From: an uncultured Candidatus Saccharibacteria bacterium
Lineage (GTDB): Bacteria > Patescibacteriota > Minisyncoccia > Phycocordibacterales > UBA6065
DNA: 51,660 bases
Assembly (NCBI GenBank): GCA_964368565.1
Contig: CAYJAC010000001.1
Location: 30,571-82,230, forward strand
Direction of reading: 5' to 3'
A program made the translations under genes and the position numbers. The notes beneath the pieces are model-generated. The model was not told where the DNA came from and made no database searches. It saw nothing but the letters and a program-made list of their open reading frames with translations. Of the stretch, positions 25,127 to 37,749 are shown in pieces; within the stretch, counting starts at the first letter, position 1; each line of letters opens with the position of its first letter.

Positions 25127-26362
25127 TTACTCTGTTAGATTGTAGCGCCACACCGTCATGTCTTTCTTGTTGGTAAATATAATAACGTTCTCGTTTTGAT
25201 CAAGCGAAGGCTTTATCATGTCCATCGTTAGTCCAATGGTAGAGTCGGGGTTAAGGAGCTCTTCTGTTTCGCCGCTTACAGCGTCTATTTTCCATAGGAC
25301 ATCGTCAAAACCAACCTTCCCTTTATACCAGTCATCTGGGTAGGATGCACTGCGAGGTGATTGAGGAATTGCGCAGTACACCGTCGCGCGGTCCTTAGTG
25401 CTCCAGACACATTTATTGGCGAGAGTCGAAACACTGAGTCTTTGTGATGTTCCAGTTTTTACATCAAAGATTGATGTTGCTAGGGTGTTTTGGTTACTAC
25501 CAGAGAAAAGTACCAAGGTTCCGTCAGTGTTTGCTACGGTTTCAAGGCCATATACCCCACTAAGCGTCTTTGTATAGTCACCATTCGCCGGATTCATCAG
25601 ATATGAACTACCGCCTGTCGCATTGCTTGGTTTTGAGGAGATTACAATTGCCTTTGGAGAGGTCCAGTTGGTTGTCCACTCACCAAATGAAGAGTTGAAG
25701 ATTGCCTCTTTATTACTACCGTCCATGTTTGCCATTATTCCTTGGGCATTAGTGTCTCTCCAGACTAGATAGAATATTTTATTAGCGTTTACCGCTATGT
25801 TTCTGATGCCGTCTGGCAGGAAGAGCCCTTCGAGTGCCTGTTCTGGCCTTTGTGGCATTGCGATTTTCGCGTAGAAGGTACGGATAACATCACTGTCCTC
25901 TTTAAAGTATCGGATGAGGAGACGGGTGGCGTTCTGAGTAAAAATGGCTTCGTAAACCTTTGGAATGGTAATTGTTGATATTTTGGTTACCACCGATTTT
26001 TCGCTGTCAGTTTCGTATATATGACCAGTGGCGCGTTCTATGTAGCGAATCACTGTTGACGAAGCGGTTGATGATGCGACAGCTCCAGCAGTGGGAACGA
26101 ATGATATCTGTCTGAATCGAGGAAGTCGCACTTCCCCGCTGCCGCTCAGGTCTATCTCGCTCTGCGTGCTGGTTCCACTTGTCGTGCTTGTTCCTGTTGT
26201 GTTTGTTGTACCGCCCGGACCGAAAGGAAAAAGGTCTGAATCGGGAGTGGTTCCAGGATTGGTATTTGAAGGGCCCGCCGATTTGTTATACAAATACCAC
26301 CCAAGAGCTGCAAAGATTGCAATAAGGATAATTATAAGTAATGTAAATGCTTTTTTTGACAT
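25127..26362 (-). CDS. Membrane-anchored hypothetical protein (Thr/Ser/Gly linker, beta-rich ectodomain); last gene of the T4SS-like operon
   Basis: 411 aa with N-terminal TM 'LLIIILIAIFAALGWYL'. It starts 1 nt after the upstream gene's stop. Confidence 0.5.
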   Translation of the reverse strand: MSKKAFTLLIIILIAIFAALGWYLYNKSAGPSNTNPGTTPDSDLFPFGPGGTTNTTGTSTTSGTSTQSEIDLSGSGEVRLPRFRQISFVPTAGAVASSTASSTVIRYIERATGHIYETDSEKSVVTKISTITIPKVYEAIFTQNATRLLIRYFKEDSDVIRTFYAKIAMPQRPEQALEGLFLPDGIRNIAVNANKIFYLVWRDTNAQGIMANMDGSNKEAIFNSSFGEWTTNWTSPKAIVISSKPSNATGGSSYLMNPANGDYTKTLSGVYGLETVANTDGTLVLFSGSNQNTLATSIFDVKTGTSQRLSVSTLANKCVWSTKDRATVYCAIPQSPRSASYPDDWYKGKVGFDDVLWKIDAVSGETEELLNPDSTIGLTMDMIKPSLDQNENVIIFTNKKDMTVWRYNLTE

Positions 26363-26363
26363 G

Positions 26364-27662
26364 CTATTGTTTGCAAGCTACGGTTCCTGCAGCCGAAACT
26401 TCAATATCTCTTTGGCAACCCACAATCTTTCCTATCTCCGTATCAAACACTGTCCTTTGGATATTGCTTTGCTTCCTAAACTCTTCAGCCTGGCTAGGGT
26501 CCTTTGCTCGAATAGCTTCTTCGTTGGCTGAGTGCAGTTTAACCAAAGTGTCTCGAGCAACCTGGATTTGCTTTTGAAGGGCTAGTTCATTGGAAAGGTT
26601 GAACTCGGGAGTATATTCGCCTACCGGAGCTGTTATGCCAATAACACTTTGTTTAACATCGATGAGACTTTGGGCGGTCACAATCTGCTGCGTAGAGAGC
26701 ACATTAAATGCCTGAAGTGTAGCCGTTGCTTTATTTTTAGCAGGACCTGGCGGCAAAGCTTCTATCTGACGAATGAGGGATTCCTCGGTTGCTGATTTTG
26801 CATTTGTAGCAAGTCGTATGGCTTCTCGAGGATCCTCCTTGTTACCCTCAACCATTCTTGCGATATCTCGAGACCCATTTGCAGACACAGCATTCATGGT
26901 GTTGAGCGATAAAGTGGCCTGGTAATCAGATACCACTTTTGTCTGCGCCTCAATATCAGCTGTTAGCTGAGGTAAATCTTTCATAATTTTATCCAACCTT
27001 TCAACATCTTCTGGAATCATTGATCCCTCCAGTTCCGCTGCCTCGGCGCGGAGCTGATCCGCCTCTCCTGTGAGCTGATTTAACCTACTTGTCTCAGTTG
27101 CCAAGTTTTGCTGGGCGATTCGAGCCTGTGCGGTTGCATTGCTTGCCCAAGTCTCCGACTGCTTAAGAAGGCCACTTAAGGTCCCTGAGTCGACGCCATC
27201 ACCCCCCACCGGAGTTCCAAGACTTAGATTTATATTCACCAGGTCTATATTTATAGTGCGCAAGAGTAGGTACGAGCACAAAAGAAGAGCCAGTCCGGCA
27301 AATGCGCCATGCCACTTTTCTTTTGCATCCGACTTTCCTGTTATAGCTTCGGCTGTAGCATATTCAACCCCTGCCCAGATGATCATTATTACAGCTAAGA
27401 CCGCGGCGATACCTATGGATACGCCATAAAGGTTTTTAATTTTTTCAAGAGGATTTGTATTGACGCATCCTGCAGTGCTTCCATTTGGTGCTGGTTTGCA
27501 TCCTACGGTAAATCCGGGGATTGTTGTGAGCGCAACATATTTGTCTTCATCGACTGCAGCCACAGCCTCATGTACAAAGGATCCTGAAGCCATAATCATG
27601 AGTCCGAAAAGGGACCCGGCACATACTTTCTTAAGAATATTTCTTGTACGAGCTGTGATCAT
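26364..27662 (-). CDS. T4SS-pilin-like domain protein fused to a long coiled-coil C-terminal region
   Basis: 432 aa with a signal peptide. 'NPLEKIKNLYGVSIGIAAVLAVIMIIWAGVEYA...AKEKWHGAFAGLALLLCSYLLLRTIN' has the two-TM VirB2/T4SS_pilin-like architecture. About 280 aa of Ala/Gln/Glu-rich helical sequence follows. Confidence 0.55.
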   Translation of the reverse strand: MITARTRNILKKVCAGSLFGLMIMASGSFVHEAVAAVDEDKYVALTTIPGFTVGCKPAPNGSTAGCVNTNPLEKIKNLYGVSIGIAAVLAVIMIIWAGVEYATAEAITGKSDAKEKWHGAFAGLALLLCSYLLLRTINIDLVNINLSLGTPVGGDGVDSGTLSGLLKQSETWASNATAQARIAQQNLATETSRLNQLTGEADQLRAEAAELEGSMIPEDVERLDKIMKDLPQLTADIEAQTKVVSDYQATLSLNTMNAVSANGSRDIARMVEGNKEDPREAIRLATNAKSATEESLIRQIEALPPGPAKNKATATLQAFNVLSTQQIVTAQSLIDVKQSVIGITAPVGEYTPEFNLSNELALQKQIQVARDTLVKLHSANEEAIRAKDPSQAEEFRKQSNIQRTVFDTEIGKIVGCQRDIEVSAAGTVACKQ

Positions 27663-36825: not shown

Positions 36826-36855
36826 TGAGAGAAAGATAATCCCTATCAGTATACC

Positions 36856-37749
36856 TTATTGTGTGATTTTGTATCCCCCTTCTGTTGAGGAAAAAACTAC
36901 ATTATTGCTTACGAAATAGACTTTTAGTTTCAGTACTCCAGCATTCACCAGGTTGATGCCATTTTCGTATAATTTTATCTTCGTCAGAGCTCCAACCGGG
37001 TCGCTAAAGATGGTAGTTATTCCTTCAGCACCACCTGCCAAGAGGTTTACTCCATTTGTGAGGGCTGCATGCGCAGAAGCAGCGGTTTTTGGAACCGTCA
37101 TCTCCATGAGGGATGTCGAAATAGCCTTATAGCGCCTGATAACCTGGTCAAGTGTCTCGATTTCCTTTTTAGTTAAGCCCCCCGCCTCCCTGCTCCTTTC
37201 AAGGATCATTAATTCATGATCTCCGGCAACTGCGGGTACTGACAGCGCCTTTCCCAGAGCGTTTCCGTATGCTCTTAGGCTTGAACGGCTGGTATCGGAA
37301 CTAATATTAAGATCGGCCTCTGTCACAAGTCGGATTGGACCAGAATAATCATTCGAAAGCACCATTTCCGCAATTTCATCCTGTGTTATTTCGTCAATAT
37401 CCTGACCGTTTTTCTTTGCTTCTGTATATTTGGTGAATAATTCACGTGCAAAACGATCGGTTGCTGTAACAGGTGCGGCGCTGTCGATTTTTTCGGATGT
37501 CGGTGCTTCCTTTAGGGCTATAGCTTGGTCCGTGCTGGATCCTAGGATATTAAGCGCGTTTTCAAAATCATATGAGCCGGTTTCAATTGATTTTTTTACG
37601 CTAGCACTGGCGATGAGGCTTACTTTTTGTTTAATATCGCTTTGCTGGGCCGGTTTTGATGAAATTGTATAGGTAAGGGCAGCAATAATTAAAACAAGTG
37701 CGATGAGGAGAGAGATGCCGATTCTTGTTTTGAGAAAGTTGCCAATCAT
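36856..37749 (-). CDS. Membrane-anchored hypothetical protein; first gene of the operon
   Basis: 297 aa with N-terminal TM 'IGISLLIALVLIIAALTY'. Confidence 0.45.
   Translation of the reverse strand: MIGNFLKTRIGISLLIALVLIIAALTYTISSKPAQQSDIKQKVSLIASASVKKSIETGSYDFENALNILGSSTDQAIALKEAPTSEKIDSAAPVTATDRFARELFTKYTEAKKNGQDIDEITQDEIAEMVLSNDYSGPIRLVTEADLNISSDTSRSSLRAYGNALGKALSVPAVAGDHELMILERSREAGGLTKKEIETLDQVIRRYKAISTSLMEMTVPKTAASAHAALTNGVNLLAGGAEGITTIFSDPVGALTKIKLYENGINLVNAGVLKLKVYFVSNNVVFSSTEGGYKITQ

Follow-up and report, generated by a model that had tools for sequence, protein, structure and literature searches.

A probable vertically inherited, non-conjugative type IV secretion system beside the replication origin of an uncultured Patescibacteria genome

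What might be the role of a type IV secretion system (T4SS) whose genes are accompanied by neither a relaxase nor a coupling protein, and which lies among core chromosomal genes? The question is raised by a ten-gene operon at positions 25127-37749 of a 51,660-nucleotide stretch of contig CAYJAC010000001.1, from an uncultured member of the Patescibacteria, or candidate phyla radiation (CPR). This whole stretch, referred to here as the window, is the final 51.7 kb of an 82-kb contig in a metagenome-assembled genome (MAG) of 797 kb, 27 contigs and 94.7% completeness. A first-pass annotation of the sequence had proposed that the operon functions in DNA uptake, host attachment or effector transfer rather than in conjugation, and a function other than conjugation agrees with all of the tests described below and with published conclusions on related systems (PMC10633639, PMC12102498). 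The reading favoured here, at a probability of roughly 0.85, is that the locus is a vertically inherited, chromosomal and non-conjugative T4SS characteristic of Patescibacteria, located close to the replication origin of a ~0.8-Mb Paceibacteria/Parcubacteria genome.

The ten genes, termed g1 to g10 from the first to the last gene of the operon, were delimited by open reading frame (ORF) calling and all lie on the minus strand. The intervals from g1 to g10 are 30, 6, 4, 13, 18, 9, 39, -4 (an overlap) and 1 nt, in accordance with the earlier description of ten co-directional genes with gaps of at most 39 bp and a single 4-bp overlap. The T4SS signature motor is encoded by g7 (28712-30523, 603 aa), whose product is, judged by its sequence, a VirB4 ATPase, as had been claimed, and one of the MPF_FATA/CD1110 type. 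It scores 369.6 bits against the NCBIfam model conju_CD1110 (cut-off 325) and 8e-26 against Pfam P-loop_TraG, and its matches among PDB sequences include the C-terminal domain of Thermoanaerobacter VirB4 (4AG5, 3.6e-41) and R388 TrwK (6e-8). The core residues of the Walker A motif (A-x4-G-K-S: A259, G262, G264, K265, S266) and of the Walker B motif (D469, E470) show no variation across 80 aligned sequences, which argues that the ATPase is catalytically competent. It is the single VirB4 that a whole-genome profile search detects. The closest VirB4s encoded on plasmids belong to the CD1110 family, come from Firmicutes and Actinobacteria, and are 28-36% identical; identity to any plasmid VirB4 is thus at most 36%, as against at least 49% to VirB4s across the phylum, among the matches listed.

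Directly upstream of the motor gene is g6 (30533-31168, 211 aa), previously described as a VirB4-N-domain-like protein and resembling a TrsD-like, stand-alone N-terminal piece of VirB4. In four VirB4 models, including conju_CD1110 (2-118), VirB4_plasma (101-233, 4.3e-12) and TIGR00929 (4-178), the protein aligns with N-terminal positions, whereas g7 covers only later positions of these models (185-733, 275-893 and 298-726, respectively); g6 also matches the TrsD family (2.3e-5). No similarity between g6 and g7 is detected by BLASTP (E = 0.58). Because the model coordinates are complementary and the two proteins lack pairwise similarity, g6 and g7 are read as a split VirB4 arranged like TrsD/TrsE, and the same two observations rule out g6 as a duplicate of an N-domain that is also present in g7. 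In 78 related loci, g6 is a separate gene of 202-233 aa immediately upstream of g7. The small membrane protein encoded by g5 (31187-31627, 146 aa) was rightly called PrgI/VirB3-like, matching PF12666 PrgI at 4.1e-10 (40.5 bits, cut-off 27), and its gene adjoins g6-g7 in 17 of 20 virB4 neighbourhoods sampled at the level of the phylum.

For the putative channel component, the evidence is of a different kind. The product of g3 (32266-34479, 737 aa) is a polytopic, 'extended VirB6-like' membrane protein, for which a scan for transmembrane (TM) segments gives approximately eight to nine hydrophobic segments within residues 11-337, followed by a hydrophilic C-terminal extension of ~390 aa that is rich in Gly, Ala and Lys. 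Its match to TrbL/VirB6 (PF04610; 1.6e-4, 21.9 bits) falls under the cut-off of 25.9 bits, and the eight of 40 orthologues that match this family do so below threshold as well (best 5.4e-5). A profile search of PDB sequences yielded chance-level coiled-coil hits only, and tblastn found no homologue on the 72,556 plasmids. The gene lies upstream of PrgI and VirB4, with g5-g7 as its neighbours across the phylum, and it is mainly this conserved place, together with the topology, on which a VirB6 call is based. The earlier designation of g3 as VirB6-like agrees with its topology but stays below threshold in profile hidden Markov model (HMM) searches, and the sequence points only weakly to a VirB6-like protein.

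Between the VirB6-like and PrgI genes is g4 (31641-32261, 206 aa), which occupies this same place in other classes. It encodes a soluble protein that, as the first-pass annotation had it for one of the partner proteins, has neither a signal peptide nor a TM segment, and that consists of an N-terminal domain of ~105 aa followed by a disordered linker rich in Pro, Ala and Thr. At its C-terminus is the sequence D-P-Y-R-E (residues 199-203), of which 34 orthologues all retain D199, Y201, R202 and E203, with P200 close to invariant; the motif is kept in same-order and some same-class loci, with the variants DPYRE and DLYRE. No family in Pfam, NCBIfam or PDB was found for g4, and a Pfam scan of all of its orthologues likewise gave none. 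The protein may be a cytoplasmic adaptor, and its DPYRE tail looks like a short linear docking motif. Collectively, the split VirB4 (g6 and g7), PrgI/VirB3 (g5), the putatively VirB6-like g3 and the conserved g4 form a cytoplasmic-membrane core of the Gram-positive conjugation type (MPF_FATA).

The operon also includes the pilin-like protein that had been proposed, encoded by g9 (26364-27662, 432 aa). It has a VirB2-like pilin domain with two TM helices (residues 81-99 and 119-137) and, C-terminal to this, a helical extension of ~290 aa that ends in a Cys-containing tail. Alone, g9 does not reach the 26.6-bit cut-off of PF18895 T4SS_pilin (1.4e-4, 22.3 bits), but all 40 of its 40 orthologues match this family (best 2.6e-9), while two match TrbC/VirB2. 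The extension is evidently variable, since orthologue lengths range from 106 to 436 aa, and searching PDB sequences with the g9 alignment returned chance-level coiled-coil hits only. Thus, of the earlier VirB3, VirB6 and pilin calls, the first and the last hold in HMM searches, and that for VirB6 is weak. A further set of pilin genes is found on another contig (G000:C10:11225-14685, minus strand), where five small VirB2-like pilin genes (L002-L006) with scores above cut-off encode proteins of 84-189 aa that all combine a signal peptide with a pair of TM helices. The array is broken by a stretch of ~1.4 kb, and is followed by a 431-aa N-terminally anchored protein. It is of the 'pilin array' type described for Patescibacteria.

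If the core is of a conjugative type, is the system conjugative? Searches for seven relaxase families (PF03432, PF13814, PF08751, PF01076, PF03389, PF02486 and PF07514) were negative across the whole genome, so that no relaxase of these families, adjacent or distant, accompanies the operon, as had been stated for the window. No gene for a type IV coupling protein (T4CP) or a VirB11-like ATPase was found in the window or on contig C1, again as stated, and there is no VirB11-like ATPase in the genome, where the T2SSE family is represented only by type IV pilus ATPases, three of them PilB-like and one PilT-like. The claim that a coupling protein is missing is true of the locus and of contig C1 but not of the genome, since contig C14 encodes a T4CP-like ATPase of 685 aa (G000:C14:17649-19706; L001:1471-3528) that matches T4SS-DNA_transf at 29.5 bits (cut-off 20.1), in addition to TrwB_AAD_bind and TraG-D_C. 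This protein has no TM helix, carries a disordered Pro/Gln-rich tail of ~250 aa, and is encoded among unrelated genes. A homologue with 59-86% identity turned up in each of the 26 relatives searched. Many same-order genomes also have a second T4CP-like paralogue of ~920 aa (41-45% identity), and in a few relatives (G315, G303 and G314) the T4CP-like match contains in-frame stops.

Such an unlinked ATPase, acting with a relaxase of a family not yet recognised, could in principle allow working conjugation, in which chromosomal DNA is exported and mobilised between CPR cells. The retention of the T4CP-like gene in all relatives searched is compatible with this, as is the observation that some of its plasmid matches fall in Embleya and Priestia records also hit by VirB4, 1.4-6 kb from the virB4 gene. 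Because these plasmid matches lie so close together, the sequences suggest a single monoderm conjugative ancestor for the two ATPases, whose genes would have become separated in the CPR. Furthermore, the authors of a survey of 3,035 Patescibacteria genomes, of which 2,417 encode VirB4, allow for 'very different relaxases yet to be found' (Quinonero-Coronel 2025, Microb Genom; PMC12102498). In that survey, however, relaxases were found in only 103 genomes, T4CP homologues were common but usually distant from virB4, and the VirB4 tree indicated that exchange of T4SSs between Patescibacteria classes is rare (PMC12102498). In the Saccharibacterium S. epibionticum, the one genetically tractable relative, the t4cp homologue is non-essential whereas the T4SS genes are essential (PMC12102498). 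With the seven relaxase families absent here, a T4CP-like protein that lacks a membrane anchor and lies among unrelated genes, and an operon that is strictly syntenic with the origin region and has no integrase or plasmid context, conjugation is a very unlikely explanation of the locus.

The genomic setting addresses both the mobility of the operon and a further function. On one side it is flanked by dnaN, dnaA, rnpA and yidC, and on the other by a TIG-domain membrane protein, a 132-aa membrane protein, rsmA (ksgA), uvrD/pcrA, a LysM-M23 peptidase and comM, according to Pfam annotation; ruvB is also within the window. The minimum of the cumulative GC skew falls at ~26-28 kb of the window, and this position, together with the core-gene flanks, places the operon at the replication origin among core genes, consistent with the previous statement that it is not in an obvious mobile element. 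A scan of GTDB species genomes recovered 80 related loci, all from Paceibacteria/Parcubacteria MAGs (with Taylor-, Zambryski-, Campbell- and Nomurabacteria labels), in which VirB4 is 79-95% identical. When all window genes were compared by tblastn, the block dnaN-dnaA-rnpA-yidC-g10...g1-rsmA-uvrD was found in essentially every long locus. All ten operon genes are detectable in 19 loci and have the same order and strand in 18 of these, an arrangement that is accordingly not due to chance. The sole non-collinear case is L089 (JBBTSQ010000032.1, ~6.5-19 kb), in which g5-g6-g7 are on the opposite strand; this switch may reflect either a true inversion or an assembly error. VirB4 itself is present in 290 of 301 genomes sampled from the phylum, and in 250 of the 254 that are of high quality. 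Thus, the lack of a relaxase of the seven families, the collinear core-gene block and the near-universal VirB4 all argue that the locus is not mobile.

The same neighbourhood might be taken to favour a T4SS for DNA uptake (competence), of the kind known from Helicobacter ComB or archaeal Ced, importing environmental or host DNA for nucleotides or for recombination. The locus has neither relaxase nor T4CP, as in ComB; comM, uvrD and ruvB are in the same window; and in class ABY1 competence and recombination genes are found near the T4SS (PMC12102498). However, the repair genes nearby belong to the usual housekeeping complement around the origin, with synteny conserved in relatives. The CedB equivalog is matched only weakly and locally, at 35 bits against a cut-off of 700, and over the P-loop alone. 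Moreover, a conventional uptake route is present, comprising ComEC (C2:23972-24718, 141 bits) and the PilB-like and PilT-like ATPases mentioned above, with one PilB-like ATPase (T2SSE and MshEN) encoded at 11805-13478 (plus strand) of the window. In S. epibionticum, loss of comEC abolishes competence without affecting viability, and the T4SS is essential independently of it (PMC12857230). Given the ComEC and type IV pilus genes of this genome and the comEC-dependent competence of S. epibionticum, DNA uptake has the least support among the functions (three in all) offered by the first-pass annotation, the non-conjugative part of which stands. As an account of the whole locus it is unlikely, though less so than conjugation.

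How, then, is a T4SS of this kind distributed across the phylum? Twenty virB4 neighbourhoods from same-order, same-class and other-class genomes were scanned with HMMs built from the alignments of this analysis, and the module g3-(g4)-g5-g6-g7, often following rsmA-g1, was recognisable across classes. Outside this module, g2 is patchy among the 20 neighbourhoods, g10 is patchy outside the order, strong HMM matches to g8 are confined to same-order genomes, and g1, which is patchy too, keeps its position after rsmA in other classes at low HMM scores. By these profile matches, the VirB6-g4-PrgI-TrsD-VirB4 core is phylum-wide and the surface proteins are lineage-specific. Median identities were also compared within one set of related loci (window 20979-37749 versus L017-L096). 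VirB4 (g7) has a median identity of 82.6%, followed by g6 (64.4%), DnaA (59.5%), g5 (57.3%) and DnaN (49.9%), whereas the values for the other operon genes are 38% (g9), 32% (g8), 31% (g10), 30.5% (g2), 28.4% (g3), 27.2% (g4) and 25.6% (g1). That VirB4 exceeds both DnaA and DnaN in the same loci argues for strong purifying selection on the motor, and the periphery, by these values, is fast-evolving, besides being modular.

The variable products of g1, g2, g8 and g10 form a set of membrane-anchored surface proteins. The first gene of the operon, g1 (36856-37749, 297 aa), encodes a membrane-anchored protein with a TM helix at residues 10-28, a disordered linker at ~31-95 and an ectodomain formed by an all-alpha helical bundle at 96-297. 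The AlphaFold2 model has a predicted local distance difference test score (pLDDT) of 85.3 overall and above 93 for residues 96-297. A Foldseek search of the PDB with this model gave a best E of 0.47 and nothing VirB5-, VirB8- or VirB9-like, and the alignment profile matched no PDB sequence. The product of g8 (27659-28672, 337 aa) is N-terminally anchored or secreted, and its AlphaFold2 model, computed from a 45-sequence alignment (pLDDT 92; predicted template modelling score 0.77), consists of an N-terminal helix and three beta-sandwich domains, with repeat motifs at W73, W176 and W285. Its top Foldseek matches are arrays of immunoglobulin (Ig) domains, namely phage Hoc (1.6e-9), SiiE and sidekick, and nothing VirB8- or VirB9-like was found. 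On the basis of this model, g8 is predicted to be an order-specific surface stalk or adhesin of three tandem Ig-like domains. Canonical VirB5, VirB8 or VirB9 parts had been considered for g1 and g8, and were rejected as the predicted folds give a generic Ig array for g8 and no significant neighbour for g1.

The largest product, that of g2 (34486-36825, 779 aa), is secreted or anchored and, as the first-pass annotation had noted, contains an F5/8 type C (discoidin) domain, located at residues 466-579 (F5_F8_type_C, 2.8e-7; 31.2 bits, cut-off 28.2). The conserved part of the protein is a Cys-containing N-terminal core at ~65-370, in which W113, G117, C153 and C178 are invariant, and the C-terminal region is beta-rich. 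The discoidin domain is present in only six of 43 aligned orthologues (294-809 aa in length), with others bearing Ig-like domains, and many database relatives of 520-550 aa are without it. By tblastn, the g2 core has no homologue on the 72,556 plasmids, and the g2 alignment gave chance-level coiled-coil hits only among PDB sequences. A candidate assignment to DUF4141 (Bacteroides TraI) was rejected, being a match of ~40 residues beside the signal peptide in four database relatives, above cut-off in one and absent from g2 itself. Taken together, g2 is probably a host-surface adhesin. The last gene, g10 (25127-26362, 411 aa), encodes an N-terminally anchored protein with a TM segment at 6-24, a low-complexity linker and an ectodomain of ~320 aa, in which G113, K317, C318, C330 and W345 are invariant in a 46-sequence alignment. 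Weak hints of DUF5050 (E = 0.057 for g10, with one of 46 members at E <= 0.01) are the only matches; a Pfam scan of all g10 orthologues gave no family, and there is no match among PDB sequences.

With so many adhesin-type modules (discoidin, Ig-like, and a pilin with a coiled-coil extension), the operon could be regarded as an organelle for adhesion only, in which a VirB4-driven pilus and surface proteins serve solely to fix the cell to its host, with no translocation. Conjugative pili are considered to act mainly as attachment organelles (PMC12857230), and the extreme conservation of VirB4 would fit a pilus-assembly motor as well as a transport motor. On the other hand, a VirB6-like channel protein is kept phylum-wide beside VirB3 and VirB4, and the genome already has type IV pili, which are implicated in adhesion in relatives (PMC12857230). 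An organelle for attachment alone is therefore judged as improbable as conjugation, and a non-conjugative system that also moves macromolecules is preferred.

What is known of related systems supports the overall reading. Epibiotic growth of S. epibionticum requires both the T4SS cluster (SEML1_0006-0019 in strain ML1) and a pilin array, and the system is most like Gram-positive conjugative T4SSs, with no recognisable coupling or relaxase proteins (Wang 2023, Cell; PMC10633639). The survey cited above found that Patescibacteria VirB4s form a monophyletic clade nested in MPF_FATA, that TrsD, PrgI/VirB3, VirB6 and VirB2-like pilins are encoded near virB4, with pilin arrays common, and that the T4SS of Paceibacteria adjoins dnaA, dnaN, rnpA, ksgA and rpmH (PMC12102498). 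A 2025 FEMS review treats the Patescibacteria systems as established newcomers to the T4SS superfamily (PMC12857230). The locus described here shares with this clade the MPF_FATA-related VirB4, the TrsD-like, PrgI/VirB3 and VirB2-like components, with a putative, sub-threshold VirB6-like protein nearby, the lack of a relaxase of the seven families, a T4CP homologue elsewhere in the genome, and a chromosomal position beside dnaA, dnaN, rnpA and ksgA (rsmA). There is no categorical difference, and the locus is one more member.

More distant likenesses help to delimit the system. With the Gram-positive MPF_FATA systems, namely pGO1 Trs (TrsD/TrsE), pCF10 Prg/Pcf (PrgH-PrgI-PrgJ) and integrative and conjugative elements of the CTn2/CD1110 type, it shares the order VirB6-like, VirB3-like, VirB4 and a monoderm architecture without the VirB7/9/10 core. 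The split TrsD plus VirB4 is shared with the pGO1 subclass, and a g7 score above the CD1110 equivalog cut-off, along with nearest plasmid VirB4s of the CD1110 family, with the CD1110-type systems. In contrast to these systems, VirB4 here is only 28-36% identical to its plasmid counterparts, there is no relaxase, linked T4CP or mobile element, the operon has no recognisable homologue of PrgK/VirB1 or PrgL/VirB8, and g3 and the g2 core have no plasmid homologues; VirB2-like pilins are present, whereas Gram-positive systems lack them (PMC12102498, PMC12857230). Bordetella Ptl, Brucella VirB and Helicobacter ComB illustrate that a T4SS without T4CP and relaxase can be a dedicated protein exporter or DNA importer (PMC12857230). 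These differ, however, in being diderm systems with a VirB7/9/10 outer-membrane core and in residing on virulence or competence islands, whereas the present locus is of monoderm type, has another VirB4 ancestry, and belongs to a near-universal, vertically inherited gene set of the phylum. Likewise, neither a CedB-type ATPase nor a VirB8/9/10 core, as in archaeal Ced or ComB, is found here, the models of g8 and g1 having no VirB8- or VirB9-like fold.

These comparisons suggest a working mechanism, in which VirB4, docked on VirB3 and VirB6, would drive the building of a pilus or channel of VirB2 type across the monoderm envelope, and the variable surface proteins would bind glycans or proteins on the surface of the host cell. 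The machine would then move macromolecules between epibiont and host in a contact-dependent manner, instead of conjugating DNA. Export of protein into or onto the host is the substrate most commonly proposed, with uptake of host material as the alternative; the unlinked T4CP-like ATPase, lacking TM helices, may or may not feed substrates to the system. Several points weigh against the overall reading. The relaxase search covered seven Pfam families, without MOBB and MOBM profiles, in a genome that is 94.7% complete, and the VirB6 assignment of g3 is sub-threshold and lacks support from PDB or plasmid sequences. No VirB8-like or VirB1-like part was recognised inside the operon, and g9 may be a membrane anchor with a pilin fold instead of a polymerising pilin. 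Finally, the data on essentiality come from Saccharimonadia, which is another class.

A 2026 preprint describes tubular structures, possibly T4SS pili, at the parasite-host interface and proposes feeding on host RNA (bioRxiv 10.64898/2026.06.21.733656). A speculative version of the uptake alternative would have the VirB6-g4-PrgI-TrsD-VirB4 core act as a phylum-wide conduit for host macromolecules (RNA, nucleotides), with g1, g2, g8, g10 and g9 forming a tip or stalk by which the host is recognised and host range is set, and with the DPYRE tail docking g4 to VirB4 or to the T4CP-like ATPase. As a package, this is doubtful, if somewhat less so than the DNA-uptake account.

The boundaries of the operon, and the genes beyond them, provide some additional detail. 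The convergent gap between the stop codons of g10 and yidC is filled by a large stem-loop (24993-25126) bordered by runs of A and of U, and the minus strand of 24985-25135 folds with a predicted energy of -89.1 kcal/mol (z = -15.5, 200 shuffles). This structure is probably a bidirectional terminator that marks the 3' end of the operon. Within the operon, a scan for promoter and terminator consensus sequences gave counts at shuffle level. Divergent from the operon start, at 37819-39452 (plus strand), are genes for a membrane-anchored TIG/IPT-domain protein of 410 aa with seven Cys and for a 132-aa TM protein, a pair that is syntenic in only some close relatives; both may be extra surface components of the T4SS locus. 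Further away, at 42333-43499 (plus strand) and outside the operon, is a cell-wall hydrolase with LysM and Peptidase_M23 domains (3.2e-23 and 3.4e-33, respectively). Several related loci have an M23 peptidase in the vicinity of virB4, and in three same-class genomes (L098, L100 and L105) it is among the cluster genes, adjoining g3 in hit order. VirB1-like hits of the 2025 survey include M23/LysM domains (PMC12102498). Since M23 genes are inside or beside the T4SS cluster in same-class genomes, the hydrolase is a possible VirB1-type, cell-wall-opening partner. A reverse transcriptase is encoded elsewhere in the window, at 2816-3829 (minus strand; RVT_1, 8e-20).

The identification of the locus is regarded as correct but already known, because every element of it is in print, including the absence of relaxases and the non-conjugative interpretation (PMC10633639, PMC12102498). 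In the portions of Wang 2023 and Quinonero-Coronel 2025 available to us, no mention was found of the order-level accessory set (g1, g8, g2 and g10) and its folds, of the invariant DPYRE tail of g4, of an in-operon pilin fusion (g9) combined with a small-pilin array on another contig, or of the conservation of the unlinked T4CP-like gene in all 26 relatives searched. The accessory set, the DPYRE tail and the T4CP-like gene are minor additions. The locus thus adds no new kind of system, and is instead a clean and complete Paceibacteria example of a T4SS that probably plays a central part in the epibiotic life of these ultrasmall bacteria with their poor biosynthetic capacity. What it brings out is the contrast between a strongly conserved motor, with VirB4 above DnaA, and a rapidly diversifying, modular set of surface proteins. 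This contrast, together with the g1, g4 and g10 families, which are conserved yet match no assigned family, may offer a starting point for structural and host-range work.

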